A DNA stretch of 64,000 bases. It comes from a virus. Lineage: Duplodnaviria; Heunggongvirae; Uroviricota; Caudoviricetes. The translations under genes and the position numbers were made by a program. The notes below the pieces were generated by a model. The model saw only the letters and a list, made by a program, of their open reading frames with translations, was not told where the DNA came from and searched no databases. The DNA is taken from IMG/VR virus record IMGVR_UViG_3300006204_000424, positions 22,382-86,381 of that record; one strand, 5' to 3'. Numbering within the stretch: the first letter of the stretch is position 1; each line of letters starts with the position of its first letter. Positions 3,894 through 52,759 of this stretch are shown piece by piece.

Positions 3894-6800
3894 ATGATAT
3901 TCAGAACGATAACAGACGATATAACAGGAGCAAATAAATCTGTCGGATTATTTGGAAAAACTCTAAATGACCTTAAAGGAATATTCAATTCTTTTAAGCA
4001 GAACGGAATTGTAAGCACATTACTCAACACGCCTCTAATCAATATTGATATGCGTGCCATAAATAGATATAATGACGCAATTAGAGCTGGTAAAAATTTT
4101 GAAGAAGGATTAGCTACAGCACGAAGAACTACTAATGCTGCTACGCTCGCGCTGATTGAATCCTCTCATGGAGCTGAAGTCCAAATTGAAAGAATAACTG
4201 CTGCACAAAGGGCTTCAACCATTGCCGCCAAGGCTCATTCAGCCGCCCTCAAAGCCCTCTCCATTGCAGGGAACATTGCAATGATGATAGCAATCAGCAA
4301 AGCAATCCAGCTTGCCATATCCGCATACGACAATTATGTCCATAGGCTTGATAATGCAAAAGAAGCATTAAATTCTTCTGCCGAATCCTATGAAAAGAAT
4401 AAAAAGGAAATTGAAGAATTACAGAAGCAAGTAGATGAATGTGCAAAGTCTATTGCTAACCTTGAAAAGCTGGAAAAAGATGGAAGTATCTCTATCATTC
4501 AGCAGGACGAATTGGACACACTGCGCCAGACAAATGAAGAACTTCAAAGAGAACTTCTCATTAAGCAGGAACTGGCAAAGGTAGATGCTCGTAAAACTGC
4601 TGACGATGCTACCAAACTATTTAATACTGCTGTTAAAAGTGAGTATGCTGGAAATATATATTATAAATCCAGAATTTTAGGAGATGTATCCCAACAGCAA
4701 GAACTTGAGTTTTCTATTGAAGAATACCAACGCCTTGCAGAACAGCAGAAGCGAAACGACATTGCATACGCCAACGGAGAAATTTCATTAAAGAAATACA
4801 CCAAAACAAACGATAAACTGATACAGGGAATGGCAGATGCCAGGAACAGGGCAACCGAAATGGCAGATGTTATCAATCAAACTGGCACCGCCTTGCAAAC
4901 ACTTGAATCATCTGGTGAAACTTTAACTTCTGACCAACAAACCCTGTTGTCACAGACAAATGCCCTAGGTGATGAGTATTCCAACTTCATCCACCAGATC
5001 GATGCAGCAACAAACGCTTTTGAGCAATTAGATGAGAAACAAAAGAGAGTCCGAGTGAAAACAAGGATTATAGAATCTGGTATCAGTGAAAGTGATGCGC
5101 AATCTATTGTTGACAGTTTTAAGGAGAAAGATCTGGATGTAGTTGGTTCTGTAAAGTTTGACTTTGAAGCACCTGAAAAGTCAGATTTTGATTCCGCAGA
5201 GGAATGGGGAAAGGCTTACGCAGAGAAATTCTTAGAAAGTGCTGTTGAGACTATCGAGAAAGATGAAAGCCTGCAAAATGCAATTGGGCAAACAGCAGAA
5301 AAAATGATTACTTCACTTGAATCGCTTTCCGATGGTTTTGATAAGATTTCTTCCATTTATGAGGATGTACAGAACAAAGCTGATTTCGATTATGGAAGTC
5401 TGATTGATGAAGATTTTGTCAATATTTTCAAAGCATACACAGCGGAATATGAGAATTTTGTTGATGTAATAAGTAACTCCCCTACTGACATTAAGGCTTG
5501 CCAATCCGCATTTGATGATTTGGTAACAGCATGGTTTAATGGGCAGGAACCTTTGAAAAACATCACCGAAGAAACATACGCACTTACTGTAAAATGGTTA
5601 GAGCAAAATGGTGTTGCAAACGCAAACGAAGTTGCAACCTATGCGCTTGCCAAGAGCAAGGTTGAGGCTTTCATTGCAGGACGTGACCTGTCACAAGTTA
5701 CTGACGAAGAAATTGCAAAATTCCTTGAAGAAAATGCCGCGCTTGGTGTAACGCAAGAGATGCTTTGGAAGTTACAGCTTGAAATGATTAACGCCAGCAA
5801 TACAAAACTGGATTTCAGCCAACAGCTTGAAGCATTAAATGAACTTGCTGAACGGGCTGGCGTTGCTGCTATCAGCCTGAGTAATATCGGCGGAGTACAG
5901 ACTGGAAACGCTATTGCAAATAACCTGATTAATTCTATTGCAAACCCTATGGGGACTCAATTTCAGAAAACCGCAATTGCCCATCAACAGAAAGCAATTC
6001 AGGATAAAATCAATAGCGGTACACCAAAAGTTTCCTACACACCCCGTTCTTCTGGTTCTTCTGGCAGTGGTTCATCTGCAAAAGAAAAATACGCTGCCGA
6101 AATTGACAAGTATAAAGACCTTTCTGAAGCCGTAGAGGACGTACAGACGAAGATTGAACATCTCAACGATGTTTACGACCACACAGACGATATTAACGAG
6201 CAGATTGCACTCAAGGACAAGCTGATTGGTCTGTATCAGGATGAGAAAAACGCCCTCTCCGCTTTGAACAATGCCAGAGATAAAGAAATCGCAGAGAATG
6301 TCCAAAAACTTCGTGATGCAAATTTCCAGGTTGATTACGACCCGAAAACTGACAGACTGAAAATCCATAATCTTGAGCATTTGAACGAGCTTTCTCAGGA
6401 TACTATCAAAGATTATGAAGATTTAATCAAGAAAACTGAGGAACTTAACGATGCCAATAAGGACAGCGCAGAGCAATGGACTGACCTTACTTATAAAATC
6501 GTTGAGGCTGGCGATGCAATCAGGGATTTGGAAACCAAAAAATACGAACAGTATATCAAGGATACGGAGCACCTGATTACACTGATGAGCAACCGCAAGG
6601 ATACGCTTGGCGGGGACATTCCTTTCTACACTAATATGATGAACGCCGCTGTTGAGCGGATGATGAAGCTTGCAAAAGAGGGCTACGAGAAAAACAAGGA
6701 CGAAATCCAAGACCTGCAGCGTGACTGGATGGATTACTACGACAAGCGTCTGGAACGAGAAAAGGAAATCCTTGAAATGCAGCTTGACAAAAAAGACGGC

Positions 6801-35476: not shown

Positions 35477-36664
35477 TTAATTTGTATATTCACAAGTATT
35501 CAGTAATACATCTCTCATTGATTTCATCGCAACATCGCTTGACATATGTGTATAAATATCCAATGTTGTTTTAACATTCTTGTGACCCATAATATACTGT
35601 AAAGATTTTATATCAATTCCACGTTCAATCATCCTTGTACAAAATGTGTGTCGCATAGAATGAGGCGTTATGGCAGGGATTTTATCGTGATGAAATTGGT
35701 TATACAAATTAACAGCATCTGATATACTTTTGTTAAGCATACAATAAGTTACAATTTTTGATTTTTTGTGTGATTTTAGAAGAAATTTTGAATAGCCATC
35801 TATAATAATTTCAATAGGTGTTTCCTCATCTCTCCTTTTTATCAAATTCAAAAATGAAACATATGCTTTATCAGAAATATATATCTCTCGCTTTCCTGCT
35901 TCTGTTTTTAGTGTATCGATTCTGAGTGGTGTGTTAGCGACATTATTGCGAGAACACAGCTGATGGTTTATGCTTAGTTCCCTATTCTTCAAATCAATAT
36001 CATCTAATGTAAGACCCAAAAGTTCTCCAACGCGAATACCTGTTTCTAACATTATGACAAATATGTCATAATACCACTGTATCTTCTTTGTATTCTTCAC
36101 AAATTCCAAAAATTCTGTTTCTTGATTTTGTGATAAAATAGCTTTTTCTTTGTAATTTGAAGGCAAAAAATCCAACTTAATATCGCATGGGTTTTTACGT
36201 ATCCAATCATCTTGTAAAGCAATATTAAAACAAAGTTTCAAAACACAATGATAAAATTGAATTCTTTCTTTGTGGATACCTGCGTTGTATAAACTTAAGT
36301 AAAATTCTTTGATATGAGAAGATTTCACTTTATTTATTTTCATTTTTGCAATTGGATACTTGCTGATGACGTTGATACCATATCGCATTTTTTGTGTAGT
36401 AGATTGCTTCCATTTTTTATTGCTTTCAAAATATATTTTTAGTAACTCTAAAACAAACATATTTCCATTATTAATAGATAACCCATCATCAATATCTTTT
36501 TGAAGTTGTTTTTCCTTTACACGCAATTCTTTTAATGTCGGCGCATATATGGTATGCCTTTTACCATAGCCATCACTACATCGATACATATAGTTACCAT
36601 CTTTACGCTGGCTTTCTCCAGTGAACAAATTCCTGCCCTTATTATCTTTTCTCTTTTCAGCCAT
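35477..36664 (-). CDS. int: Tyrosine recombinase / phage integrase
   Basis: C-terminal catalytic region HSMRHTFCTRMIERGIDIKSLQYIMGHKNVKTTLDIYTHM (R..H..Y). N-terminal arm-binding-like GRNLFTGESQRKDGNYMYR. Start set at MAEKRK (GGAGAGAGGAG RBS); the track ORF extends to 36715. Confidence 0.85.
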   Translation of the reverse strand: MAEKRKDNKGRNLFTGESQRKDGNYMYRCSDGYGKRHTIYAPTLKELRVKEKQLQKDIDDGLSINNGNMFVLELLKIYFESNKKWKQSTTQKMRYGINVISKYPIAKMKINKVKSSHIKEFYLSLYNAGIHKERIQFYHCVLKLCFNIALQDDWIRKNPCDIKLDFLPSNYKEKAILSQNQETEFLEFVKNTKKIQWYYDIFVIMLETGIRVGELLGLTLDDIDLKNRELSINHQLCSRNNVANTPLRIDTLKTEAGKREIYISDKAYVSFLNLIKRRDEETPIEIIIDGYSKFLLKSHKKSKIVTYCMLNKSISDAVNLYNQFHHDKIPAITPHSMRHTFCTRMIERGIDIKSLQYIMGHKNVKTTLDIYTHMSSDVAMKSMRDVLLNTCEYTN

Positions 36665-36752
36665 ACAAATTCGCTCCTCTCTCCTGCCGAAAAGAGCCTT
36701 AATGTGATAAAACATATTTTACCACATCAAGGCTGCAATTACAAATTCCTCG

Positions 36753-36986
36753 TCAAATTACATTTATCTGATTTATCTCTTTTTCAAAAAGTTCTCTTTT
36801 CAGCAAAGCCTTGTTGCCATTCCAGAGAAGATAATCTGCCCTTGGGTTGCTTCTGATTATCTCCCGCAGTTTCTTTTCTCCGATATTAAAATATTCTGCC
36901 GCTTCAAATACTGTCAGCGCATACTTTTTCCAGATAGGAACTTTATTGTTTTCCAGTGCTTCCAATACCTCCTCTGTTCTCTCCAC
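36753..36986 (-). CDS. xis: Excisionase / HTH DNA-binding protein (Xis-like)
   Basis: 77 aa. [27 protein letters not shown]. Immediately upstream of int on the same strand. Confidence 0.6.
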
Positions 36987-37782
36987 TCAATTGGTCAACT
37001 TCCTCAAATTCAATTTGTGGTTGATGTTTCATTACCCTAAACTGACAGATGCGGTCATTTATATGGATTTCTGTATCTCTCAACGCATACGCTGGAAAAT
37101 GCCATTGATCGCCATTACCGCAATATGTCTCATCAATCAACCCCATATGATTTGTTTGAATCACACCAAAATTTTTAAATGTTGAACTCCTCGGAAGAAT
37201 ATGCGCTTCATAGCCCTTCGGCAGCTGCATAGCAACGCCAAGTGGGATCAACTTATATTCACCTGCTTTTAACGTAACATCCTCTGCTGCTCTCAAGTCA
37301 ATCCAATCGGATTTCCTATCAATGTATCTCAATTTTTCAATTTTATCTGTAAAATACTTAATTTTAATATCCATGTTTCTTTCTCCTTTGTTGTTTCTCT
37401 TATGAACTTCATTTATCTTCTTATCAGCAGTAAAATCTTCCGCGATTTGATATTTGGGTATAATCTTTGGCAAGCCACTTGTGTAGAATAGATTTTCCCA
37501 TGATTTTTTATTTTTGAATATCTCTTTTGACAAAGCACCTGCTGACTTTTTTCTTTTTAATTCAGTAATAGTGCCAATGGTTTCTATGTCTTCTTCTTTA
37601 GGGATTTGAACATTATGTGTTTCACAAATACGGCAATTATAGTACCAACGATATGCGTCATTTATTTCTTTTAATACTGGATAGTTTGTTCCTCTTATTC
37701 CTATCCAAAAATCATCGTCAATCAAAAATTTACCAGTTTGGCTATGATATTCACCTTGTATAAGATATAACATTTTTTGCAA
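36943..37782 (-). CDS. dut: dUTPase (trimeric type) with an approximately 135-aa N-terminal extension
   Basis: C-terminal half carries dUTPase motifs RSS.., [16 protein letters not shown] and RGGIGSTG. The N-terminal extension is unrecognised; an internal Met (MDIKIKYF) could be the real start. Confidence 0.65.
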
Positions 37783-37874
37783 ATGGCTTAATGTAACTGA
37801 TTTTCCTTCCCTGCAACATTTATCAATTATGTATTTTGCTAAGTTTAGCCCCTTTAAATTTTTGCTCCTTTGAT

Positions 37875-38723
37875 TTATCCGTAAATTTTATGTTCCTGAA
37901 CAACGAAAGCATTTAATACATTTTGCAGAAGTGCCAAACGTGTCAGCAAACCAACCCCGCCTGGAACTGGCGTACAAAAACCTGTTACTTGTTTCACATC
38001 ATCATAATCTACATCTCCGCACATCTTACCATTATTATCAAAGTTAATCCCTACATCAATAACAACAGCATTTGGCTTCACATATCTCCGATCGATAAAT
38101 TTTGCTTTTCCAACAGCAACAACCAGAATATCTGCCATTGAAGTAATCTGCTCTAAATTATTTGTCTTACTATGGCAAACTGTCACAGTTGCATCATTAT
38201 CCAGTATTGTTTTTGCTAACGGTTTCCCAACCAGTTCACTTCTTCCGACAATAACACAGTGATACCCTGCAAAGTTTTCGCCATTCGGAGAAAGGTAACT
38301 CATAATTCCCTGCGCTGTACAAGGAGTGTGCTTGCTGTCTTTTCTGAATCCATCAACATCTTTTTCTTTTGGAATCAGATTTATGATATTATCCCAAACA
38401 TTTTCAAGATGACATGGTAACGGCTTCTGAATAATCACTCCATGTACATCATTCATATTTGAAATTTTAGCAACTTCATCTGAAAATTCTGTTTCGGAAA
38501 TACCCTCTTCATATTTTAAGTAAATTGTCCTAATCCCAACCTCATCACAATCCGAGATTTTCCCTTTTATGTACCTGTTAGATGCAGGGTTGTCCCCTAC
38601 TTGAATAATCGCAAGTGTTGGAATTTTTCTGTCAGCATAGTTTTCACAAATATCTTTACATATAGTCTTTTCCTTTTCAACAAATTCCTTTATATCCTCT
38701 TTACTGCAAAATAAATGTGACAT
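37875..38723 (-). CDS. folD: Bifunctional methylene-THF dehydrogenase / methenyl-THF cyclohydrolase (FolD)
   Basis: 282 aa. [30 protein letters not shown] and GGVGLLT motifs. Confidence 0.8.
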
Positions 38724-38907
38724 TATATCTCCTTTCGCATTATTTACTTGTAATCTGATGTAAAAATGGCAGTGCTATCGGTCTGCCAGTCCGTCTGATT
38801 GGTTACAGAGTGTCAGCGTATTGATATTATCTCACTGTTCCACAAAAGATTTTTATCTTTACCAAATTTAAAGGATTGACATTAAATAGCAATATATATA
38901 GATATGC

Positions 38908-39789
38908 TTACAATGGTTTATACTCACTTTTAGACGTTACAACTGCCGTGCCTGCCCCTTGAACCGTCACCCATCCATGCTCCATTCTAGCTTCCGCTTC
39001 TTTCATATCAATCAATTCTCTTGTAATGCTACCAGCGATTACCTTGTTTGCTTCGGCTTCAGCCTGTGCTTTTGTTAAAGTAATGTCAGCCTCGTTTTTT
39101 GCTTTAATCAGCGCAGTTTCGGCTTCAACCCTTGCTGTTTCCTGTTCCGCCTGAGCCTGTTGTTTCTTTTGCAAAGCTGTTACACGGTTATCAATAGTTT
39201 GCTGGAGTTGTGCGTCTGGATGTACGTCAATAATGCTTGCATCAATCACTTGGATACCATATGCGTCAGAGAATTCTTTTGCAAGATAATCTGTGATTTT
39301 GTTGTTAATTTCGCTACGGTTCCCAGAATAAATGTCCATCATGGAGTAATCTGTTGTTACCTCCGAAATTTTAGATTTCAAAACAGTTTTTACACGGTTA
39401 TTTACAATATCCTCACCACTCATACCTCGGAATTTCTTATATGTATCTACCAAATCTTCCTGAATGAATTTATAGGACATCTGGAAACTTACAGAAATGC
39501 TTGCATCGTCCGCAGTAGATACATTGAAACTCTCATCCGTTTCACTTCCATCCCGTTCGTCTTTAGAAAGAATCAGCTGCTCGTTGCTCACTGTAAACTC
39601 CTTTACCTTTACCGTAGGCGACACAATGTGCCAGCCTTGAGAAAGCACCTCATCTTTCACGCCGCCATTCATAGAATACTGCACGCCGTTATAGCCATTC
39701 GGAATACGCTCAGTACAAATTCCAACACACAAAATTGTGCAAATCAAAATCACTGCAAAACTTACACCACCAATTAACCCTTTTTTCAT
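38908..39789 (-). CDS. SPFH/Band-7 (prohibitin/HflK-like) membrane protein
   Basis: N-terminal TM helix. Ala/Glu/Gln-rich C-terminal helix QQAQAEQETARVEAETALIKAKNEADITLTKAQAEAEANK. Confidence 0.65.
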   Translation of the reverse strand: MKKGLIGGVSFAVILICTILCVGICTERIPNGYNGVQYSMNGGVKDEVLSQGWHIVSPTVKVKEFTVSNEQLILSKDERDGSETDESFNVSTADDASISVSFQMSYKFIQEDLVDTYKKFRGMSGEDIVNNRVKTVLKSKISEVTTDYSMMDIYSGNRSEINNKITDYLAKEFSDAYGIQVIDASIIDVHPDAQLQQTIDNRVTALQKKQQAQAEQETARVEAETALIKAKNEADITLTKAQAEAEANKVIAGSITRELIDMKEAEARMEHGWVTVQGAGTAVVTSKSEYKPL

Positions 39790-39953
39790 TTTTCATCTTC
39801 TCCTTCTTCTTTATTGTCTTCTTCGTTTAAAATTTCTCTTGTATCATCCATAATTCTGTAAAGCCATTTCCCAAATGGTTTGAACAAAATTGATAATCCA
39901 AACCAAATGATTATTGTAGCTAGAATTACAAGAAACCAAAATACTGGATTCAT
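39786..39953 (-). CDS. 55-aa single-TM micro-protein translationally coupled (ATGA) to the SPFH gene
   Basis: GGAGG RBS. MNPVFWFLVILATIIIWFGLSILF... Its TGA overlaps the SPFH ATG. Confidence 0.35.
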   Translation of the reverse strand: MNPVFWFLVILATIIIWFGLSILFKPFGKWLYRIMDDTREILNEEDNKEEGEDEK

Positions 39954-39956
39954 TCT

Positions 39957-40154
39957 TTAACCTCCTATTGCAATCAAAACAGGTTTTACAATCCACGAAT
40001 CGATCAAAATAATGCCTGTCCCAGATAAAATCATGATCATCATAATTCGTTTTATGTCCTTAAATTCCATACTGTTGCAATTGTATGTATCACAACTAAA
40101 TTGATATAATACGAGTGCGACAACAATCAAAATAATACCTAAAATACTTGCCAT
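39957..40154 (-). CDS. 65-aa two-TM micro-protein
   Basis: Hydrophobic ORF. Its stop lies 3 nt before the next micro-ORF start. Confidence 0.3.
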   Translation of the reverse strand: MASILGIILIVVALVLYQFSCDTYNCNSMEFKDIKRIMMIMILSGTGIILIDSWIVKPVLIAIGG

Positions 40155-40155
40155 T

Positions 40156-40533
40156 TTATCTACCTACCTTTAATAGAATATTTTTAATTTCAAAAAAATA
40201 CTGCCTTAAATGTTCCTCAAAATCCTCTTTTGTGATCCATTGCATACTATGCGGTATATCATTTATAGAATAGAAATAGTTTTTTTCGATGATATATGAA
40301 TTTTCACCATTACAATCCCTTTCAGTAGTAAATAGCCAACATCCAATACTTCTGGTTTTTTCGTTATATGTATCAAACATCAAATATTCAGCATCATCAC
40401 GTAAAACCATGTAATACTCGCCCTGGAGATTTATCAGATTTTCTCTGTTGATCTTATCTTTCAGCCTATTTTTTTCTTCTATATTTTTTTGTATTATTAT
40501 TTCTAATTCATCAAACCTTTCTTTATCATTCAT
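40156..40533 (-). CDS. Hypothetical protein
   Basis: 125-aa ORF in the operon. No recognised domain. Confidence 0.35.
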   Translation of the reverse strand: MNDKERFDELEIIIQKNIEEKNRLKDKINRENLINLQGEYYMVLRDDAEYLMFDTYNEKTRSIGCWLFTTERDCNGENSYIIEKNYFYSINDIPHSMQWITKEDFEEHLRQYFFEIKNILLKVGR

Positions 40534-40562
40534 ATAACATCACCTCTCTGGTGGGCAGGTTT

Positions 40563-41108
40563 TTACCCCTGCCTATACAAAATAATCTTTCCGTATTTCA
40601 AAGTTTTTTGAACGTCTATAACACGTTGGTTTGTACTGCCAGCATATGGATAATTTATATCTGCCAAATGTTTTACGAATTTTCCATCTACTAAAACATC
40701 TATATGGCGCAACAAATCATTTCCAATATTTCTTGTCACATTGAAGTCATCTGTCGTTACGCTTCCTTCGTGAATATATATTTGTTCAAAAGTATATCCC
40801 GAGTAAATCCAGATTGTTTTATTCGGAAATTGTGTTTTGATTTCTCTACACAAGTTATACACTGTCAAAATATTATCCGGATGTAATGGGTCGCCGCCAG
40901 AAATGGTAAGTCCGCTAATATAATCGTGTTTCATTTCGTTTATGATTTCTGTCTTAGCATCAATATCAAATTCTATTCCGCTACTTGGGTCGTGCGTTTG
41001 CGGGTTATGGCATCCATCGCAATGATTGCTACAACCAGAAACAAATAATACCACACGCAGCCCGCTGCCATTTCTCATATCATCATGAAGAATGTCATGA
41101 TAATTCAT
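40563..41108 (-). CDS. nrdG: Anaerobic ribonucleotide reductase activating protein (radical SAM), NrdG
   Basis: CSNHCDGC (CxxxCxxC) cluster. 181 aa. ATGA overlap with nrdD exon 2. Confidence 0.8.
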   Translation of the reverse strand: MNYHDILHDDMRNGSGLRVVLFVSGCSNHCDGCHNPQTHDPSSGIEFDIDAKTEIINEMKHDYISGLTISGGDPLHPDNILTVYNLCREIKTQFPNKTIWIYSGYTFEQIYIHEGSVTTDDFNVTRNIGNDLLRHIDVLVDGKFVKHLADINYPYAGSTNQRVIDVQKTLKYGKIILYRQG

Positions 41109-41572
41109 TACATGCTCACCCGCTCTTTCAGTTCTGCGTTTTTTGCAGCATTATATCTAGTGTCACCATGGACTCTCGTGTACCCAAGGTATCCGTTCAT
41201 CCTGTCAATTTTAGTGATCAAGCTGCTCCCGCATTTAGGGCAAACGTCCATTTCCAATTCTTCGTATCCGCATTCTTCACAGTATGCCAGAGAAAGGTTG
41301 ATACCTTCATAAAAACCCATATCCATAGCTCTTCTTACAAGTGTTCGGATTGCCTCTTTGTTATAATTTATAGGGTATCTACAATATTGGATTTTTCCGC
41401 CATTAAACAAATTCCAGAAACGCCCCTCAAGATTTTGTTTTTCAATCGGTGTAATATCTTCCCAAACACCACAATGAAAAGAGTTACTTACATATGGTCT
41501 ATCAGAAACACCTTCAATAATGCCATATTTTTTACGAAATTGCTCTATTTGCAATCCACATAAGGATTCTGC
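41108..41572 (-). CDS. nrdD: nrdD exon 2 (C-terminal glycyl-radical / Zn-ribbon part of anaerobic RNR)
   Basis: AESLCG..VSNSFH..CEECGYEELEMDVCPKCGS..RMNGYLGYTRV (glycyl-radical RxxGY) pattern. Frame open without ATG back to 41572. The preceding nucleotide is the intron omega-G. Confidence 0.6.
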   Translation of the reverse strand, partial: AESLCGLQIEQFRKKYGIIEGVSDRPYVSNSFHCGVWEDITPIEKQNLEGRFWNLFNGGKIQYCRYPINYNKEAIRTLVRRAMDMGFYEGINLSLAYCEECGYEELEMDVCPKCGSSLITKIDRMNGYLGYTRVHGDTRYNAAKNAELKERVSM

Positions 41573-42676
41573 CGTTATACCCTCGGTTTCCCGATATTTA
41601 TTAGGGGACTAGACTATATTATGTTCTCTATAATAGAGAACCCTCATCTTTCGATTTAAACTGGACTTAATCGGAACATTGCCAGTACCTAACATCTAGG
41701 CTCTACTCTACTCGCTTCGTGTAAATTTCACCTTATTCTATTATTTTTATAATAGTGCTTTCGATAGTCGTTAGAAATCATTGACTGTTTGCTATTTTCA
41801 TTATTTATAGATTTATACAGAAAACTTCAAATTTTTTGTTCCTGTAAATTTCAAATATTCTTCTTTAGATATACTTTTAAAATAATAACCTTTTCTTCCT
41901 TTTGTGTTTTTGTCAATCATTTTTGCAATATTATTTTTACTATAACCTTCAATGCATCTTGCGGCTTGGCTAATAGAACCATACATTGAAACAAAATTAT
42001 CATTATTTTTATATACAGATACTGGTTTAGATTGACTATCAGATATACCTATATCATTCTTAGCCAATTGATCATCAAATGCCTTTTTGGTATTTTCGCT
42101 TGTATTAGTCCAATATAGATTGCTTAAATCAAAATTTGATTTATCATTATCTTTATGCCCAACTATGTCATACTCATTTGGTTTTGGATTACTAATAAAA
42201 GCTTGAGCTAAAAGTCTATGTAATCTTCTACTCCTATTTTTTCCATCCTTACATGTTATTCCAATATAAACATATCCGTTATGTTTATTTATATTGAATT
42301 TTTTAGGATAAAACCAGTCTTCACCATAATCTTTATATACTTTTCCTGAAGGGGTAATATAATCAGTATTACTTTCTTCAATCAAAATCATTTTTTCTTG
42401 TATATCTTCTTTTTTTATTAAGTTTTTTAATAGTTTTCTTCTTGCTATGCAACATCACCTTCCATTTTGATTTTGTTTATAGCAAACAGTCAACAACTTA
42501 CGGTATTATCTCTATCCTATAAGTTAATATAGGACTTTAGAATCTCTTACCAGCCTGCTTCGTCTTTTTTATATTGCTATCTGCATCTGCCTTGAGCAAT
42601 AGTCTTATTCTGGCTATGACCGTTTAATGAGGTGTTTTCGACTTAATATCACTATTAAGCTGCCCACTTATGTTTA
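41573..42676 (-). mobile_element. Group I intron (about 1.1 kb) interrupting nrdD and carrying an HNH homing endonuclease ORF
   Basis: The 5' exon ends in U (cct|). The intron ends in G (taacG|gca). Exon frames join to give ...IYGTP|AESLCG... Internal free-standing HNH ORF. Confidence 0.55.
41813..42391 (-). CDS. HNH-family homing endonuclease (intron-encoded)
   Basis: NRSRRLHRLLAQAFISNP and GHKDNDKSN segments typical of phage HNH_3 / AP2-type homing endonucleases. Confidence 0.65.
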   Translation of the reverse strand: MILIEESNTDYITPSGKVYKDYGEDWFYPKKFNINKHNGYVYIGITCKDGKNRSRRLHRLLAQAFISNPKPNEYDIVGHKDNDKSNFDLSNLYWTNTSENTKKAFDDQLAKNDIGISDSQSKPVSVYKNNDNFVSMYGSISQAARCIEGYSKNNIAKMIDKNTKGRKGYYFKSISKEEYLKFTGTKNLKFSV

Positions 42677-44358
42677 GGCGTTCCATAAATTGCATAAAGA
42701 ATACCATCTTCTTCTTTAAATTCACTCACACGTTGATTAATATACTCCATAACCTCAATAGCAAACCCACCATCTTCTACAATTGATTTGCCATTATAAA
42801 GCTCTTGTAGCTCATTTAATGCTGTAATACCAAAGCTCATTGTCATAGGTTTCAAAATAGGTTTAATTTTATCATTTGGTTGCAAATAACCTCCATAAAA
42901 TCCACCCATACAATATGCCAAAGGATTAGTGGATGCTTTCTTTTCGCCAAGATATTCATAAGTCTTGATATGGAGTTTCCTGATCAATTCAAGATAAAAA
43001 TCAAGAACTTCATAAAAATCTTTATTCTCTTGCTTTGCTTTTGCCAAAATCATAGGTAAATGAAGGCTGATAGCACCAAGGTTAAAGCGGCCTTCAAAAA
43101 CAGGCATATCATTTTCATCCGCTGGATACATTCCTCCGCGCTCATACCATGGAGAAAGCGATGCCCTGCAGCCCATCAGCGATACAACCTTCCCATACTT
43201 TTTATACATAGAAGGGATATATCCTTCTCCAGTCAAAGAAAGAAAATCTGGATACATTGCTTTGCTGGAACAATCTATTGCTGTTTCAAACAGGCTTTCC
43301 AATTTCTTACCTTTTCCATGTAAATTTTCATCATACAAAAACGTCAGCTTAGGGAACAATACCACTTTTCTAAATCCATCTTTTCCTTGCCCATTCATTC
43401 TTGTTTTCAATACCACTTCGCTTGCCATTACACCCCATCTTGAGGTATCAATACCAAAACTAATGGAAGTAAATGGGTAATCTCCTCTGGAACTTCCGAC
43501 AGTGTTAAACCTCATCTCCCAAGATTGGAAGCCCTGCTCAAAATCACGTTTAACCTTCTTTGCCGCATATTCATCCGCTTTATCAAGGAAATGATTTTGT
43601 GATAACCCTTCTGTAAATCCGTCCGTAATCTCAAGATATTCTTTTTTATATTTTTCATAGGATTTTTCTGCATAAGGAGCAAGAAGGCTATCAACTCTTG
43701 GAATAGTAAAACCACCATATTGGCAGGCGGCTGCACTGATCGCAACATCACTGATCACATCAAATGCAACATCTAGTGTTTTAGGTTCGTTATACCACAC
43801 ATTACCCATCTCAAAACCACCGGCCAGCACCTCATCCATTCGGAACAAGCAGCAATTGACCGTATCGCGTCTTGCCGACATATCATGAATATAAATGTAT
43901 CCATCCCGACAAGCCTGAAGTTCTTCTGTATTTAAAAAGAATTTTTTATAAAGTTCCTTGTTTAACTCATTATAAATCAGGCTGCGCTGTGTCGGAACCA
44001 ATGCACTATCGCTGTTTGCATTATCTTTATCTCCAATGTACATAATAGACTGTGCTTTCTTATAAACTTCGTCCAGCATCTTTACAAAATCCTGTTTATA
44101 GTTTCTGTAATTACGGTAACTTGTCGCAACAGATGGATTTACTTTTTCCAATGCTGTTTCTACTGCATAATGCATTGTTGAAATTGGTACATCCTCTATT
44201 CCCAAATGTGTGATAATACTCAAAACATTTTCACAGATCTGTTCATCATCTTCTGTCGAAAGTCTAACCATTGCTCTCTCGGCAGATTTGCCCACAGCTA
44301 CAATAATTTTTTGCTTATTAAATTTTTCTTTTGTTCCATCCTTCTTTATTACGTTCAA
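42677..44358 (-). CDS. nrdD: nrdD exon 1 (anaerobic ribonucleoside-triphosphate reductase, N-terminal and core part)
   Basis: 561 codons to ...AIYGTP. The ORF-track frame runs 6 codons into the intron (KHKWAA*). Confidence 0.7.
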
Positions 44359-44810
44359 TTACATTCCTCCAAACATGTGATTTTTCCATATATTTTCTGA
44401 ATATCGCTCTTTAAGCATTTGTATGAATTATCATTTATATTCAACAATCCACAATCATAACATTTTCTTTGTATTTTATTTTGTCCGAAACAATTTTCAC
44501 TCATGATTTGATAATAAATATTGTGATTTTTGCAGTATGCGATTTCAGACATACATCCTATACTAAACTGATAATCTCCAAATACCCACATTTCATCGCA
44601 TTTTTCTAGCAGCCATAAACACATATTTAAACCTTTTTGATATGAAACATCATGATAAGCAAATGAGAAGGAATGGATCGGAGATATGAATAGAAAATCA
44701 GGAAACGTTTTTTGCAATTTTACAATAAGCCTTCCTATTATTCTTTGATTATTTTCATCTCCACCAAAAGGGTGAGAAATATAGATTATACTTTTGTACT
44801 TCATAACCAC
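44355..44810 (-). CDS. Nucleoside 2-deoxyribosyltransferase-like (DUF4406-like) protein
   Basis: YISHPFGG...MWVFGDYQFSIGCMSEIAYC resembles the NDT-fold pattern. Low certainty. Confidence 0.35.
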   Translation of the reverse strand: MVMKYKSIIYISHPFGGDENNQRIIGRLIVKLQKTFPDFLFISPIHSFSFAYHDVSYQKGLNMCLWLLEKCDEMWVFGDYQFSIGCMSEIAYCKNHNIYYQIMSENCFGQNKIQRKCYDCGLLNINDNSYKCLKSDIQKIYGKITCLEECN

Positions 44811-45325
44811 CTCATTTTGTAATAAATATGTGCTGCCATTTTAGCGACTGTATTACGTTCCATAACGAAAATATCGGGCTGCTTTTCGAAACCTGAAAAT
44901 TCTTTTCTGTCATAGAAAATACGCCTAAGCGAATCAATAAATCCATCGCCACGCTTTACCATTCGATATAATCTGACAATCCAATTCACTTTTAAATATA
45001 TTACTTTATATTGTTTTTCGCCATTGTAGTGATTTTGAAATGATTTTACTCCGCAGGGATCAATCACATAGACATCTGCTTCGTCACACTGCTCTTTTGT
45101 TGCACAATAATAATTGCCATGGTAATATGTTGTCGCAACCTTATTTTTCAGCATAACATAATCTTCATACGAAATAAAAACATGACCTTTTTCATTCTCT
45201 GTTCTTGGAGGACGTGTTGTGTAGCTTTCCAGCATCTTCATACCGTAATGTTTCTCAAGATACGTTGACAAATATGTCTTTCCCGATCCCGATTTACCTA
45301 CAAGCAAAATCAATGGTTTAGCCAT
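44801..45325 (-). CDS. Guanylate-kinase-like (d)NMP kinase
   Basis: P-loop GKSGSGKT and YTTRPPR motif. Confidence 0.65.
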   Translation of the reverse strand: MAKPLILLVGKSGSGKTYLSTYLEKHYGMKMLESYTTRPPRTENEKGHVFISYEDYVMLKNKVATTYYHGNYYCATKEQCDEADVYVIDPCGVKSFQNHYNGEKQYKVIYLKVNWIVRLYRMVKRGDGFIDSLRRIFYDRKEFSGFEKQPDIFVMERNTVAKMAAHIYYKMRWL

Positions 45326-45971
45326 ATATTGCCTTCATCCTTTCATAAAAATCCTCATTATATAGGGCATACCGTTCCTGAATATTTAAAAGATTCTCTT
45401 TCTGATATTTTTGTACAAATGCAGACCAAAAACCACATTCTTTAAATTCTGGACAACCACATCTATAAATACAATGCGGCACTAATACATCAGCCTCAAA
45501 CGGGTTTGTCTTATGTAATGTGTATTTGAAGTTCTCACCATACGATCTTGCTTCTGGTGTTGCTGCATTACACAACCTCTTACGCCATGCATCAATAAGA
45601 TTTTGCATATTGGCGTATCCATCAAAGGAAACAGGTGCCTCCTGTAGTTTTTCTCCTCTTGGAACAACATCTTTTAATCTGTCATTTCTTTGTGTGCTGA
45701 TAAATTTTTCAAACTTATGCCTCGACCACTCAGTAGAAACCCAATACGGTATAGACTTCCATGTCCAGTCAAACTCTATCAGACGGATTGGAGAATGTTC
45801 TGAAATCAATAGCTGCCATTTGAATGCATCCGTTGCATTATTTTCAGTAAAATCTTTATTATCCGTTGTCCTGCAATGGTTTTTTACCCTTTTCCAATCA
45901 TCTGCAATCCAGTTAAATACTGTTACAATATTTGTTTTCTGCATTTTAACCTCCTTTATCTTACTATCCAT
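45318..45971 (-). CDS. ThyX-like (flavin-dependent thymidylate synthase family) protein, divergent
   Basis: EHSPIRLIEFDWTW...STEWSRHKFEKFISTQRNDR aligns with the ThyX HGSPFEH..FTFEI...RHRxxSxxxxSQRY core. 217 aa. Confidence 0.45.
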   Translation of the reverse strand: MDSKIKEVKMQKTNIVTVFNWIADDWKRVKNHCRTTDNKDFTENNATDAFKWQLLISEHSPIRLIEFDWTWKSIPYWVSTEWSRHKFEKFISTQRNDRLKDVVPRGEKLQEAPVSFDGYANMQNLIDAWRKRLCNAATPEARSYGENFKYTLHKTNPFEADVLVPHCIYRCGCPEFKECGFWSAFVQKYQKENLLNIQERYALYNEDFYERMKAIYG

Positions 45972-46390
45972 ACATCAACATTTTTCTGTCTGCCAAGCTG
46001 AAACGCTTCAGAAGTTTTTTCTACAAATACATCAATCTTGTTTCCTTTTATAGCACCTCCAGTATCCTCTGCGTATCTTACTCCAAAACCATCTATTTCA
46101 ATCATTGTTCCATATGGAATTAAAGATGGGTCAACCGCTACTGTTCTCCCAACAACAGGCATTACTCCTGTTGCTGTTGGTGAATAGGGAAATTGTTCTT
46201 TAGAATAGAATGTTAATTCAAACTTTCCGATATGTTCTTTTTCAATTTGCGATACAGCTTCTTCTGCATCGTAATTGGAAATTGTTACATATCCATCAAA
46301 TGTTTGCGCAAAATCAATTCCTGTTCCTGCACATAATACATTTGATGTTAAAATTGCCGAAAAAATAATTGTTGTTAAAATGATAAATAT
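45956..46390 (-). CDS. Secreted 3D-domain protein with no canonical start codon
   Basis: 3D-domain motif VAVDPSLIPYGT...EDTGGAIKGNKIDVFV. Upstream in-frame signal peptide ILTTIIFSAILTSNVLCAG after AGGAAGGAGAG, but only ATA/ATT/ATC codons are available as starts. Confidence 0.45.
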   Translation of the reverse strand: MFIILTTIIFSAILTSNVLCAGTGIDFAQTFDGYVTISNYDAEEAVSQIEKEHIGKFELTFYSKEQFPYSPTATGVMPVVGRTVAVDPSLIPYGTMIEIDGFGVRYAEDTGGAIKGNKIDVFVEKTSEAFQLGRQKNVDVWIVR

Positions 46391-46645: not shown

Positions 46646-46834
46646 TCATTTAACTGCATTCGCTTGTTCAACAATCCATTTATACAGATTACAGCAACAG
46701 GGAATATGTAAGTTTTCTTTTTCATTTCTTGTGCGTTTCTCGTACCCATATATCTCCACAGGACAATTATCGCATTCAGTTAAACAACAAAATTGAATTG
46801 CTAATTCTTTAAGAGTTCGAATCGGTCTTTCCAT
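46646..46834 (-). CDS. Small Cys-rich protein
   Basis: CCLTECDNCP...PCCCN in 62 aa. Confidence 0.3.
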   Translation of the reverse strand: MERPIRTLKELAIQFCCLTECDNCPVEIYGYEKRTRNEKENLHIPCCCNLYKWIVEQANAVK

Positions 46835-47549
46835 ATGTTTCTACCTCTTTCAATCTATCCACAGTAATTTTCACAGCTTTTTCGTTGATATCACATCCTA
46901 TGTATTGTCTCCCCAATTCTTTAGCAACTACGCAGGTAGTACCTGAACCGCAGAAAAAATCTGCAACAATACCATTTGCAGGACAGCTTGAGTCGATTAT
47001 TTTATACAATAATTCTTTTGGTTTTTGTGTTGAATAACCAACCCTCTCCGTTTTATCATTTTGCCCTAATATATTTATTCTCCATACATCATCCATTATT
47101 TTTCCGCGACTATCGTAATATTTCTCTTTTTCATATCCTCGCGGAGCTGTTTTAGAATATTCTTGCCTAATATATTGGCTATTTTCATTGAAATAATAAT
47201 TATCCGATTTGCTGTATCGAAAAATTGTGTCGTGTCTCTTCCCGAAGTCTTTCTTTTTTCTTGGCGCAGAATTATACCACCAAATTATTTCATTTCTGAA
47301 ATTGGCTTCGCCAAAAATTTTATCAAGTGCTATTTTTATATAATGTGACAAATTGCAATCACAATGTATATACAATAAGCCAGTAGGTTTCAATACTCTT
47401 TTCATTTCAAACAATCTTGGGGAATACCATTGAACCGCTTCTGATATGCTTCCTAAATTATCAATAAAATCATCATATTTTTTGCCTGTATTATATAAAA
47501 TGTCATTGTAGATAAGATCTATGCTTTCATCCTCTAACTTCTGCAGCAA
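46809..47549 (-). CDS. DNA methyltransferase (N6-A/N4-C family, beta class)
   Basis: Motif IV-like DLIYNDILYN precedes motif I ADFFCGSGTTCVVAKELGR. Confidence 0.65.
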   Translation of the reverse strand: MLQKLEDESIDLIYNDILYNTGKKYDDFIDNLGSISEAVQWYSPRLFEMKRVLKPTGLLYIHCDCNLSHYIKIALDKIFGEANFRNEIIWWYNSAPRKKKDFGKRHDTIFRYSKSDNYYFNENSQYIRQEYSKTAPRGYEKEKYYDSRGKIMDDVWRINILGQNDKTERVGYSTQKPKELLYKIIDSSCPANGIVADFFCGSGTTCVVAKELGRQYIGCDINEKAVKITVDRLKEVETYGKTDSNS

Positions 47550-47605: not shown

Positions 47606-49372
47606 TTAATTATAACTTGGTTCACTTTTGTCAAATCTTACAGTTTCAAACACTGGAAATTGGATTGATATACCTCCATCCTTATTCTTTGTTTCTTCTT
47701 TATACTTCACAGTAATGATTTTACCAATTACGCCTTCAGGATTTTGCCAAATTCGTTTTCTATCTTCATCAGAAAATCCACTCCCAACATTAACTTTATT
47801 CCCCTTATAGTCACACACCAACGCTCCCAATGTTCCTCTGTTGCGTCCTGAACCTCCTTCTATGCCAATACACTTAATATCGCAAGATAAAAACTTTTTA
47901 ACCTTTATCAAATTTTTAGTACGCTTGCATTCATAAGGTTCATCTAAATTGATAATAACGCCCTCCCAGTCATTTTCTTCAGCATAATCTAGCCACTTCC
48001 AGATTTCAGAATGATCTGTACCGGCATATAACTGATTTACAACCTCTATATTCTTACAGCAAACATCCTGCAATTGTAAATCAAATAGATTTAAGGCTTT
48101 TCTGCGATTTTTATACGTATTATGTGATTTGCCATTCCAAAATTCTTCTAGCGGAAACAAATCAAATACTACTAATTTTAAGTCCAGTTTATTTTCATCT
48201 TTACTCATCGCTATTCCAGTACCTTTTTGGAAAGATTCTGAGTCTGATAGCCCTTCGCTATTTTTATATAAAAGTTCACCATCAATGAAATAATTCTCAT
48301 ATCCCGTTTTCGTAATATCATTGATAATATGATCCAAGCCTATATATTCTTTTCCCTGTCTGGTCATACACTTATTGCCTACAAAAGCACATCTACAATT
48401 ATGAACCGCATATCCATTTGCGAAATAAGTATGATTATTCTCAACTTCTATGTCATAAGCTCTATTGGATTTTCTTTCACTTGAATGGTTAAATTTAAGT
48501 TCTTCACTTAAAATAATTTTTTCTATTTTTCTTTCAATTAATTTATATTCCCCATAACATTTCGTCCAATCATAATCCTTAATATAGATAGTATCTCCTT
48601 TATATAAGGTTCCCGCCTCTTTCCACCCATCAGGAGTGAATATTTTATGATTTTTTGTTACTTGAATAAAATCTCTAAGGTTCCCTCTTTCTACGGCAGT
48701 TTCTATTTGCATCCATTCTGACCTATCTTTTAGTCCGTTATCAAATACATTTATTACTTTTTGTTTTGATATTTTTTTGGTATTTTCATTAAATGATAAA
48801 ACTTCATCGCCTATAACTATATCTTTAATTTTCTTTTTTGTATTATCAGACATAGTAATATATGTATTTCCATCAAAACATCCGTTTAACTTTCTGGATA
48901 TAGAAATCCATTCATTGCCTTTTAGTTTCACTTTATCAATCGGAGTACCAAGCATAACATCAAAGGTCGGAATAAGTCCATGAATGCACTTGTTCACTAA
49001 TTTTGCATCAGCTCCAAGTTTTATACTTTTTGTGATCAATCCTCTAACAAAATCTTTTACTTCATTACTCATCATACAGCACCACGACTGTACATGTATT
49101 ACATCTTCTTCTCTTCCTGTGTTGTGTTGCTTAATATAATTCAACAATCCTAAAAATTCACTATCAATATCATTATGTACCCAATCTGATGTTTGAACTG
49201 TAATTGAATCAAATTTCTTTTCTGCAATTCCTGTTGTTACATTTCCATCTAACAGGAACTTCAAACATTCCTTAAATAACTCGTTATCTTTGTTATTTGT
49301 AATGATTTTCTTTTTGTCATTTAGGCTACTTGTTTTCTGAATTTGCTTAAATAATTTTATAACTTCTAACAA
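47606..49372 (-). CDS. ATP-dependent DNA ligase interrupted by a mini-intein
   Basis: After removing residues 165-325, motif I is KLNG|CR. Motif III LVVFDL, motif IV EGVIINL, motif V LIKVKK. C-terminal OB-like FPVFETVRFDKS. Confidence 0.65.
   Translation of the reverse strand: MLEVIKLFKQIQKTSSLNDKKKIITNNKDNELFKECLKFLLDGNVTTGIAEKKFDSITVQTSDWVHNDIDSEFLGLLNYIKQHNTGREEDVIHVQSWCCMMSNEVKDFVRGLITKSIKLGADAKLVNKCIHGLIPTFDVMLGTPIDKVKLKGNEWISISRKLNGCFDGNTYITMSDNTKKKIKDIVIGDEVLSFNENTKKISKQKVINVFDNGLKDRSEWMQIETAVERGNLRDFIQVTKNHKIFTPDGWKEAGTLYKGDTIYIKDYDWTKCYGEYKLIERKIEKIILSEELKFNHSSERKSNRAYDIEVENNHTYFANGYAVHNCRCAFVGNKCMTRQGKEYIGLDHIINDITKTGYENYFIDGELLYKNSEGLSDSESFQKGTGIAMSKDENKLDLKLVVFDLFPLEEFWNGKSHNTYKNRRKALNLFDLQLQDVCCKNIEVVNQLYAGTDHSEIWKWLDYAEENDWEGVIINLDEPYECKRTKNLIKVKKFLSCDIKCIGIEGGSGRNRGTLGALVCDYKGNKVNVGSGFSDEDRKRIWQNPEGVIGKIITVKYKEETKNKDGGISIQFPVFETVRFDKSEPSYN
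48398..48880 (-). mobile_element. 161-aa mini-intein (no endonuclease domain) inserted at ligase motif I
   Basis: Begins with Cys + block A (CFDGNTYITMSDNTKKKIKDIVIGDEVLS). Ends TYFANGYAVHN followed by the +1 Cys. Confidence 0.65.
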
Positions 49373-51490: not shown

Positions 51491-52003
51491 TTATTTATTT
51501 AGAATATTTATAGCCATATCTACATGTTCTCTTTTTAAACCTCCATCACCAAACCATGTAGGCTGTATCCAATTATTTTCATACCCATAATCAGACCATT
51601 GCCAATCTTCATCATCCAATATCACGAAACTTTCTACATCATGTTCGTCAGCCCATTTTTGAATTTCCGCAGCTCTTCCAGTTCCATACTTACATTTAAT
51701 ATCTAAATCTTCTTCTAATCTTATTGTTTCAGGAATATCACCTATAATTTCTGTTTTTAAATATGGTGTATCACCTAAAACATCTATATTATTCTTTGAT
51801 AAAATTTTTCTCAAAACATGATATATTTGAGGTGTATATTTTTCAAATCCTCGCCAGCTAGAGCTAATAACAACTTTTGCATCTGTTTTGTCACATATTT
51901 CTTTAAGAAGTTTCACTTTTCCAATATCAATATTTGCAGTTTCTTCATTTTTATAATTGCTATATGTAAGTTCTCCGTCCACATCCAAAAATATAATTTT
52001 CAC
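51491..52003 (-). CDS. HAD-superfamily phosphatase-like protein
   Basis: N-terminal motif I FLDVDGEL. 170 aa. Confidence 0.45.
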   Translation of the reverse strand: MKIIFLDVDGELTYSNYKNEETANIDIGKVKLLKEICDKTDAKVVISSSWRGFEKYTPQIYHVLRKILSKNNIDVLGDTPYLKTEIIGDIPETIRLEEDLDIKCKYGTGRAAEIQKWADEHDVESFVILDDEDWQWSDYGYENNWIQPTWFGDGGLKREHVDMAINILNK

Positions 52004-52039: not shown

Positions 52040-52759
52040 TCATTGATACAAACCTATTCTTTCTTTCGCAATCTGAAAATATTTTTCAGCAATTTCAATT
52101 CCAATAAATTTTCTGTCAAGTTTTTTGCAGCTAACACCACATCCGCCGATACCCATAAAAGGATCAAAAATCGTATCGCCTTTATTAGAAGAATTTTGAA
52201 TTAGAATGTCAGTTAATTCAACTGGCTTTTCTGTATCATGAATTGTCTTATTATTTTCATCCTTCATTTTTTTATTAGCAATTTGTAAAACATCACTTGT
52301 GCCACAATTATTGATTTTCTTGTGTGAGCCTTTCCTTAGCATAATAATATATTCAAACTGACTCATATAAGTTTGTCCCATAATCTTATTATCCTTAACC
52401 CATATAAGACATTTGATATAGTGAAAATCTGATTTATCAATAACATCAAGATAGTGTGTAATATTTTTATTATTGGTCATTATGTAACAGTGACTATTAT
52501 CTTTCAGAACTTTATAGAACTTTGGCAACCAGTCTTCAATTTCCAAATCATTTACATTAAATACCCTTCCATTGTTGACCTCTTTTTTTTGAAACATACC
52601 GCCTGAATTACCACCATTACCCCTTGCTGTAATTTTATAAGGTGGATCAGTAAAAATCATATCTACCTTCTTACCCTTTTCTATCATTAAATCCAATATA
52701 TCTAATGCACTTTCATTAAATATTAAATGTTTATCTTCATTAAGTTTTAAATATTTCAA
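52040..52759 (-). CDS. DNA methyltransferase (DPPY motif; N6-A/N4-C, beta class)
   Basis: IFTDPPYKI (motif IV) precedes DPFMGIGGCGVSCKKLDRKFIGIE (motif I). Confidence 0.75.
   Translation of the reverse strand: MKYLKLNEDKHLIFNESALDILDLMIEKGKKVDMIFTDPPYKITARGNGGNSGGMFQKKEVNNGRVFNVNDLEIEDWLPKFYKVLKDNSHCYIMTNNKNITHYLDVIDKSDFHYIKCLIWVKDNKIMGQTYMSQFEYIIMLRKGSHKKINNCGTSDVLQIANKKMKDENNKTIHDTEKPVELTDILIQNSSNKGDTIFDPFMGIGGCGVSCKKLDRKFIGIEIAEKYFQIAKERIGLYQ

Follow-up and report, generated by a model that had tools for sequence, protein, structure and literature searches.

What does a strongly diverged relative of the flavin-dependent thymidylate synthase ThyX do among the nucleotide-precursor genes of a temperate phage? 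The question is raised by a 64,000-nucleotide (nt) stretch of tailed-phage DNA (Caudoviricetes; IMG/VR record IMGVR_UViG_3300006204_000424), called the window here and used as the frame for all coordinates, and in particular by the block of genes examined at 36943-45971 (Table 1). A sequence-only reading had described this block as a self-contained anaerobic toolkit for making deoxythymidine monophosphate (dTMP), composed of FolD, a ThyX-like protein, dUTPase, NrdD and NrdG, a guanylate kinase (GK)-like protein and a deoxyribosyltransferase-like protein, and had raised pyrimidine hypermodification as a second possibility. The listed genes are all found where that reading placed them, on the minus strand and ending at a Tn916-type excisionase/integrase pair, and together they make up a module with which a temperate phage supplies nucleotides in an anaerobic host; "self-contained" overstates the case, as there is neither a nucleoside diphosphate (NDP) kinase nor an enzyme that loads the one-carbon unit onto folate. 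As a whole the module is ordinary phage nucleotide metabolism, and the ThyX-like protein is its unusual part. By its predicted structure this 217-amino-acid (aa) protein is a real but highly divergent ThyX homologue with the ThyX fold, and we propose on sequence grounds, with a probability of roughly 0.6, that it converts deoxyuridine monophosphate (dUMP) to dTMP within an anaerobic module supplying deoxynucleoside triphosphates (dNTPs).

The structural assignment is carried by an AlphaFold2 model generated from 62 diverse family members (predicted local distance difference test, pLDDT, 95.1; predicted template modelling score 0.89). It superseded a poor model built from 26 close homologues (pLDDT 74, weak Foldseek matches), so model quality depended strongly on alignment depth. 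Foldseek comparison of the 62-member model with the PDB gave 138 matches at an expect value (E) <= 1e-3; every one of the top 50 is a ThyX chain (E 1e-6 to 1e-5, probability 1.0, template modelling score 0.50-0.55), even at an identity of 11-16% to the solved ThyX structures. The best matches in BFVD, which holds predicted viral structures, are phage proteins named thymidylate synthase or ThyX. Sequence comparison led in the same direction with less force: hhalign against the ThyX profile gave a probability of 88.7% over the N-terminal half; a search of PDB sequences with the single sequence or the close-homologue profile returned nothing useful, and the profile of diverse members alone reached ThyX there, weakly (E 0.1). 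No PHROG matched the protein. The Pfam Thy1 model was matched by 52 of the 62 diverse members (E <= 0.01; best 3.8e-12), several scanned members scoring above the Pfam gathering threshold, up to 39.7 bits. The sequence-only reading had called the protein a divergent ThyX, a view to be dropped if comparison revealed no ThyX fold; profile and structure comparisons have now been run, and the model and its Foldseek matches bear that view out. The fold is the one shared by canonical ThyX enzymes (PF02511; Thermotoga maritima TM0449, PDB 1O26; Thermus thermophilus, 6J61), and the order of motifs is also common to both: an AAR-like N-terminal motif, (H)SP, RH[KR]...[ST]QR and NxQ...R.

The family to which the protein belongs is extensive, comprising 1,872 clusters at 90% identity and at least 919 representatives at 50% identity (E <= 1e-3), 550 of them with E <= 1e-10. 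It has so far been found only in phages and prophages of anaerobes from gut and rumen; all 14 matches in species-representative genomes are to anaerobic gut or rumen taxa, and just 9 of 50,697 phage records contain a homologue. Members mostly have no functional annotation, the sole source name among the search matches being "hypothetical protein". The homologue in Thomasclavelia phage TR-TP1 was labelled a flavin adenine dinucleotide (FAD)-dependent thymidylate synthase by its depositors, via structure alignment, and ThyX homology as such is no discovery, since some database records already label members ThyX by structural similarity. What stands out is a large clade with a shortened core, mostly unannotated and uncharacterised in the literature searched, which holds no relevant description of Cys-rich or iron-sulphur (Fe-S) ThyX proteins, nor of the isolated phages TR-TP1 and Clostridium phage FA67.

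To define which catalytic residues are kept, equivalences were taken from a HMMER and hhalign alignment to T. maritima ThyX, and conservation was read from the columns of the 62 diverse members, whose mean column identity is 27%. H59 (H53 of T. maritima), T/S93 (S88), R95 (R90), N121 (N163) and R132 (R174) are present in 100% of the members, H85 (H79) in 97%, R105 (R147) in 92% and R84 (R78) in 85%; the strictly invariant residues are H59, R95, N121 and R132 together with four cysteines, C134, C167, C173 and C179. The equivalents of H79 and N163, putative flavin-site residues, are thus among those conserved. Retained as R95, R105 and R132 are the arginines that bind or activate dUMP, namely R90, R147 (which we take to be a dUMP-site arginine) and R174. 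The ThyX motif RHRxxSxxxxSxR(Y) is altered to RHKFEKFISTQR, with shorter spacing and no conserved tyrosine after the arginine, and the longer pattern reported by the sequence-only reading, HSP...F.W...RHKFEKFISTQR, is present in the 217-aa protein. In ThyX, dUMP is activated by R174, while S88, R90 and Y91 aid methylene transfer (PMC8316439). The retention and invariance of the R174 equivalent therefore argues for a uracil nucleotide as substrate. Deoxycytidine monophosphate (dCMP) was considered and set aside as a substrate, given that the arginine pairing with O4/N3 of uracil is the invariant R174 equivalent.

The genomic company of the gene was defined in 80 IMG/VR loci carrying ThyX-like relatives 63-74% identical to the window protein, with 10 kb of flank on each side. 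A GK-like kinase lies within this distance in 49 of the 80 loci, NrdD with NrdG in 45, a dUTPase core in 26 and a deoxyribosyltransferase-like gene in one; canonical ThyX likewise occurs in the company of dUTPase and ribonucleotide reductase. Of these 49 kinase genes, 48 follow the ThyX-like gene on the same strand and 11 lie within 40 nt of it; in the window the two genes overlap by 8 nt. The kinase family profile aligns over its full length with yeast guanylate kinase Guk1 (E 4e-23), and the P-loop GKSGSGKT and the motif TTRPPR are present; the NCBIfam guanylate kinase equivalog gives 30.8 against a cut-off of 160, and an invariant proline occupies the position aligned to yeast D100, which is presumably a guanine-binding residue. 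A search with the single kinase sequence returned one related locus.

The pairing is not confined to one kinase family. A bacterial genome (locus L006; GCA_900198705.1, 856605-877216) has a DNMK kinase of the T4-gp1 type next to its ThyX-like gene, the pair adjoining an N6/N4 methyltransferase and an MjaI-type restriction enzyme with no other phage genes recognised within 10 kb, and in phage FA67 the neighbouring gene encodes an AAA_28 P-loop protein, so that three unrelated kinase families fill the slot. Family representatives also include fusions in both orders, ThyX-like::GK (P0133) and GK::ThyX-like (P0231), as well as ThyX-like::MazG nucleoside triphosphate pyrophosphatase (P0207). Gene order, kinase families and fusions together place the ThyX-like enzyme in a flow from dNTP through deoxynucleoside monophosphate (dNMP) and a product to the diphosphate (dNDP), and suggest that the "guanylate kinase" acts on the product of the ThyX-like enzyme. 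The link to a dNMP kinase drawn by the sequence-only reading is accordingly real and stronger than was claimed. Neither ThyA nor canonical ThyX was found in the window, in 94 related loci or in the complete genomes of FA67 and TR-TP1, which both carry the ThyX-like gene; the ThyX-like protein therefore fills the thymidylate synthase slot. No ThyA was seen beside the GK-like kinase in phages without the ThyX-like gene, a comparison covering three annotated phages only, and the nrdD-anchored loci have no ThyA at the position of the ThyX-like gene.

Three further observations concern this neighbourhood. Other family representatives (among P0163, P0174, P0196 and P0192) are fused to HNH endonuclease domains, and one to a GH108 lysozyme with a peptidoglycan-binding domain; some of these fusions, and of those to kinase and MazG domains, may be gene-calling read-throughs. 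A 78-80-aa open reading frame (ORF) with a ferredoxin-like CxxCxxCx5CP motif lies between the ThyX-like and GK-like genes at L074 (10614-10850) and L086 (10639-10881) and could be a redox partner. In about 20 of the 80 loci the ThyX-like gene is immediately followed by a conserved 69-85-aa ORF (MINxRNPNRLYxFYNEVxRLHMTYMPDWRxGQFWMNFL...), the loci including L013, L021, L022, L036, L050-L053, L057, L058, L064, L066, L070, L075 and L083.

The proposed pathway rests on the established chemistry of class III ribonucleotide reductase, dUTPase and ThyX. The spliced NrdD, activated by NrdG, would convert nucleoside triphosphates to dNTPs without oxygen, and dUTPase would convert dUTP to dUMP. The ThyX-like protein would move the methylene group of methylenetetrahydrofolate (CH2-THF) via a flavin to C5 of dUMP and reduce it, yielding dTMP, which the translationally coupled GK-fold kinase would phosphorylate to the diphosphate, and in this lineage FolD may replenish CH2-THF from formyl- or methenyl-THF. 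The gene identities, the ThyX fold, the pattern of conservation, the synteny and fusions and the intron boundaries are results of the analysis; we infer flavin binding, the substrate and product of the ThyX-like enzyme, what the kinase accepts and what the cysteines do.

Several observations weigh against a conventional thymidylate synthase. The Pfam Thy1 score of the window protein is 20.7 bits, below the gathering threshold of 24.8, and covers residues 120-157 only, while with the NCBIfam thyX model TIGR02170 it reaches 15.6, the cut-off being 87.9. Where the canonical enzyme has a central segment of about 45 residues (roughly 92-143 in T. maritima), the window protein has a linker of about 10. 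The position of Y91 varies among the 62 members, and in T. maritima ThyX mutation of Y91 slows the reaction more than 100-fold (PMC8316439). R165 and Q75, both invariant in the alignment of T. maritima-group ThyX, are replaced in the clade by Gln and by His or Glu, respectively. Four cysteines, invariant in 62 of 62 members, have no counterpart in canonical ThyX. FolD is found within 10 kb of the ThyX-like gene in only two of the 80 loci, and in most relatives with nrdD no thymidylate synthase, of whichever type, lies nearby, which makes the ThyX-like gene accessory.

Relative to canonical ThyX, the clade thus lacks the central segment and Y91 and has gained a C-terminal extension with its cysteines. 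C134 follows the R174 equivalent at a distance of two residues, while the extension contains the other three, C167, C173 and C179; the T. maritima-group alignment contains one invariant cysteine only, and C134 aligns to Asp there. The four residues are most likely metal ligands. The metal could be structural zinc, standing in for the lost central helical segment, or belong to an Fe-S centre that passes electrons to the flavin. It is conceivable that the four-cysteine clade is a metal-cluster-dependent, ferredoxin-coupled thymidylate synthase.

The same departures from canonical ThyX might instead mark a change of product. The ThyX-like enzyme would then make a non-canonical pyrimidine nucleotide such as 5-hydroxymethyl-dUMP (5-hmdUMP), with water instead of hydride capturing the exocyclic methylene, and the kinase would take this product toward the triphosphate for phage DNA. 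The layout resembles that of known pre-replicative modification pathways, in which a homologue of thymidylate synthase is accompanied by a dNMP kinase of its own and by a dNTP pyrophosphatase; the ThyA-family dUMP/dCMP hydroxymethylases (T4 gp42 with gp1, and the SPO1 type making 5-hydroxymethyldeoxyuridine) show the same combination and likewise use CH2-THF. ThyA-family enzymes that hydroxymethylate dUMP have been described, as has the exocyclic methylene intermediate formed by ThyX (PMC8989533). Recruitment of kinases from three unrelated families, and kinase fusions, would be expected of a product that host kinases do not accept; the Y91 equivalent is gone and the central segment remodelled; and a deoxyribosyltransferase-like or dNMP-glycosidase-like gene lies next door. 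The hydroxymethylases of the T4/SPO1 type, however, have the ThyA fold, unrelated to ThyX, and belong to virulent phages, whereas the present element is a temperate one. Its two N6/N4 DNA methyltransferases suggest that its DNA is protected by methylation. Phages of the T4/SPO1 type also encode enzymes that deplete canonical nucleotides, and post-replicative transferases. Neither class was found in the scanned prophage genes, among which no glycosyl-, phospho- or aminoacyl-transferase and no dTTP- or dTMP-removing enzyme was identified, and no downstream modification genes were found in the 28 kb of phage DNA in the window or in the annotated phage relatives. In addition, the residues that bind and activate dUMP are intact, phage kinases also occur in ordinary modules without a thymidylate synthase, as in Lactococcus phage 949, and the literature searched offers no precedent for a base-modifying ThyX-family enzyme in phages. 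The sequence holds nothing specific in favour of pyrimidine hypermodification, and we consider this outcome unlikely; that the four-cysteine clade has moved beyond a plain synthase dependent on reduced nicotinamide adenine dinucleotide phosphate (NADPH), to a modified pyrimidine such as 5-hmdUMP that its kinase channels into phage DNA, seems improbable.

It is also conceivable that the fold has been retained for another role, the module supplying dNTPs without thymidylate: the protein might methylate ribonucleotides, as in nucleoside-antibiotic pathways (the ThyX homologue PolB acts on uridine monophosphate), serve as a nucleotide-binding regulator, or be an inactive relic. Its low identity to solved ThyX structures and its position below every curated family cut-off would fit, as would the many related nrdD phages that carry no thymidylate synthase, for which the host dTMP supply is evidently sufficient. 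Yet at least 62 members share, without exception, the residues that bind and activate the nucleotide, which at a mean column identity of 27% argues for conserved catalysis on a uracil nucleotide, the fusions to the nucleoside monophosphate (NMP) kinase and to MazG place the protein in the flow from dNTP to dNMP to dNDP, and the gene is intact in the same prophage across many metagenomes; we regard such a role as very unlikely. Phage-borne folD is unusual, as the sequence-only reading had said, with a match in 54 of 50,697 phage records, including Enterococcus, Listeria and Lak phages, and it is rare but not new, PHROG 7320 existing for it. The coupling of FolD to ThyX that was implied is not conserved: besides the two in 80 loci noted above, FolD stands beside nrdD without the ThyX-like gene in 7 of 29 nrdD-anchored loci, although several of those seven are short contigs, and a ThyX-like gene could sit further away. 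FolD is therefore best described as an optional, lineage-specific addition to the module. These counts, and the folD genes of other phages, would suit a FolD that serves another phage need, such as 10-formyl-THF for purines or for initiator tRNA formylation, or the balance of NAD(P)H; on the other side, in this prophage the FolD gene stands with the ThyX-like gene in a single compact block of minus-strand genes, and CH2-THF is the one-carbon donor of ThyX (PMC8316439). We hold a separate use of FolD to be a real, if somewhat doubtful, possibility.

The window FolD itself has both domains of methylene-THF dehydrogenase/methenyl-THF cyclohydrolase (PF00763, 86.8 bits; PF02882, 187.9 bits; E 1e-55 and 2e-24 for the two domains). 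GRSELVGKP and KDVDGF are present, and the protein has the expected Y-x3-K and Q...D motifs, to which we assign the catalytic roles assumed for E. coli FolD. NCBIfam models give about 255 bits against cut-offs of 333-559, and the protein diverges from cellular FolD.

A known phage module of similar content is that of Lactococcus phage 949, a large Firmicutes phage: NrdD, NrdG, a GK-like kinase and dUTPase are clustered, as in the window, and in modules of this kind HNH endonuclease genes likewise lie in or beside nrdD. Neither a thymidylate-synthase-like gene nor FolD is annotated in the 10-kb stretch of phage 949 that was examined, so the window adds the ThyX-like gene, FolD and the deoxyribosyltransferase-like gene.

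The ribonucleotide reductase is interrupted by an intron that had gone unmentioned in the sequence-only reading. Joining the two exons gives a 715-aa NrdD that is unbroken over the junction YGTP|AESLCG when compared with 44 uninterrupted homologues and that carries RMNGYLG and the Cys4 motif CEECG...CPKCG; together with NrdG, it has the features of a class III ribonucleotide reductase. A U ends exon 1 and a G ends the intron. The 3' part of the intron (41577-41641) is similar to sequence without annotation in many of 198 phage records that were hit, from phages of Staphylococcus, Listeria, Enterococcus and Bacillus, with at least 95% identity for most of the 198 best matches and about 88% for the listed ones. 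The intron is probably of group I, a class that we infer, since the Rfam model RF00028 did not recognise it, whether at the gathering score or at E <= 1. An intron with an HNH ORF in a conserved nucleotide gene is likewise seen in the td/nrd group I introns of phages (T4 td, nrdB and nrdD/sunY; Staphylococcus and Bacillus phages), which differ from the window intron in this Rfam score.

The N-terminal extension that had been noted in the dUTPase is real, about 136 aa in front of the dUTPase core, and matches SocA_Panacea below threshold (E 0.0016). The dUTPase domain (PF00692, residues 162-276) scores 55.6 bits against a cut-off of 22 (E 6e-15), and all five motifs of trimeric dUTPases are present, including RGGIGSTG. 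The core (36943-37374) has an ATG of its own at 37374, with the Shine-Dalgarno sequence AAAGGAG 8 nt before it. The frame is open for 35 codons upstream of the predicted TTG start, without a canonical start codon; this open stretch resembles part of the domain, so the true start of the fused ORF is uncertain. The fused ORF is also called in other assemblies, and the dUTPases of the 26 related loci have no Panacea-like N-terminal part.

For the ThyX-like gene, too, the start has two candidates (Table 1), and the shorter form beginning at M10 is the more likely, since homologues and gene callers in other assemblies begin there. The first ATG overlaps a 68-aa 3D-domain ORF (45956-46162, minus strand), which is 132 aa long in other copies of the prophage. 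Between nrdG and folD the block also contains genes that the sequence-only reading had passed over and that have no evident connection with nucleotide metabolism: one for an SPFH protein, two small membrane ORFs and an ORF of 125 aa.

Rightward of 36.7 kb, nearly all long ORFs as far as the end of the window are on the minus strand, the replication genes coming first in transcription order and the nucleotide-precursor block after them. The element terminates at about 35.5 kb with its excisionase and integrase, and beyond the integrase are host-type genes (a GntR regulator, an SSF symporter and an ornithine cyclodeaminase); the region is therefore the integrase-proximal end of a large temperate phage, whose host is an anaerobic gut Clostridia-type bacterium. 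An identical gene order of the same prophage occurs in at least 38 blocks of the assembly collection, and an identical ThyX-like protein, with the prophage itself, is found on a mouse-gut metagenome contig. The ligase is intein-free and 426 aa long in other metagenome copies of the prophage (L136-L140), so the intein is polymorphic. The window was scanned for tRNAs, and none was found; the scan for promoters and terminators gave matches at chance level only.

Table 1. Features of the integrase-proximal prophage region, in window coordinates.
Feature	Position	Strand	Basis or remark
Tn916-type integrase	35477-36715	minus	Phage_integrase and Integrase_DNA matches
Tn916-type excisionase	36753-36986	minus	Tn916-Xis match
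dUTPase ORF, 279 aa, fused to Panacea/DUF4065-like N-terminal part	36943-37782	minus	in-frame, no stop between
FolD	37875-38723	minus	both Pfam domains; PHROG 7320, E 8e-82
SPFH/Band 7 membrane protein	38908-39789	minus	Band_7, E 2e-26; PHROG 200, E 5e-58
Stretch with the SPFH gene of the row above, plus two small membrane ORFs (of 55 aa and 65 aa) and 125-aa ORF without family match	38908-40533	minus	between nrdG and folD
NrdG activase (radical SAM)	40563-41108	minus	Fer4_12, E 7e-43; Radical_SAM; CSNHCDGC
NrdD ORF pieces	42655-44358 and 41108-41554	minus	HNH ORF between
nrdD exon 2, 154 aa, glycyl-radical and zinc-ribbon end	41108-41572	minus	Pfam NRDD profile positions 427-560
nrdD intron, 1,103 nt	41573-42675	minus	boundaries from alignment of spliced product
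HNH_3 homing-endonuclease ORF inside intron	41813-42391	minus	HNH_3 and PHROG 59 matches
nrdD exon 1, 561 codons, ATP-cone and NRDD	42676-44358	minus	Pfam NRDD profile positions 1-415
DUF7768/nucleoside 2-deoxyribosyltransferase-like protein, 151 aa, Cys-rich tail	44355-44810	minus	Pfam DUF7768, 33.3 bits against 26; PHROG 355, E 6e-16
Guanylate-kinase-fold NMP kinase, 174 aa	44801-45325	minus	PHROG 1815, E 1.5e-35
ThyX-like protein	45318-45971	minus	217 aa from first ATG; 208 aa from M10 at 45944
Two N6/N4 DNA methyltransferases	46809-47549 and 52040-52759	minus	replication-gene side
ATP-dependent DNA ligase with intein	47606-49372	minus	Hint and Intein_splicing domains, CFDG...HNC
HAD protein (HAD_SAK_2)	51491-52003	minus	replication-gene side
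DnaB-like helicase, PD-(D/E)XK nuclease, HD-domain protein, Pol III alpha (1,311 aa), RecD2-type helicase			upstream replication genes

HAD-type phosphatase genes recur near the module in related loci: a HAD-like ORF directly follows the ThyX-like gene in viral contigs L067 and L072, and gp115 of TR-TP1 is labelled 5'-nucleotidase-like; these recurrent genes may encode dNMP nucleotidases. Far to the left of the prophage, a low-GC region carries on the plus strand an AAA_15/AAA_21 ATPase of the abortive-infection/OLD-type defence kind (693-2339) and a 1,773-aa ORF (3894-9215); a DUF5048 protein is among the products of a further block of plus-strand genes, at 13.6-26 kb.

ThyX serves both as an antibacterial target and as a textbook case of flavin-mediated methylene transfer. 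Studying the ThyX-like clade would show which parts of ThyX are dispensable and might reveal a new cofactor arrangement or a new product. Because the members are mostly unannotated and curated models miss the window protein, the capacity of gut phages for thymidylate synthesis is probably under-counted. Should the product be something other than dTMP, DNA modification of a new class would come into view among the phages of the gut virome, and with a modified pyrimidine as product, temperate phages of gut anaerobes would provide the first case of a ThyX-family enzyme leading to a non-canonical base in DNA.

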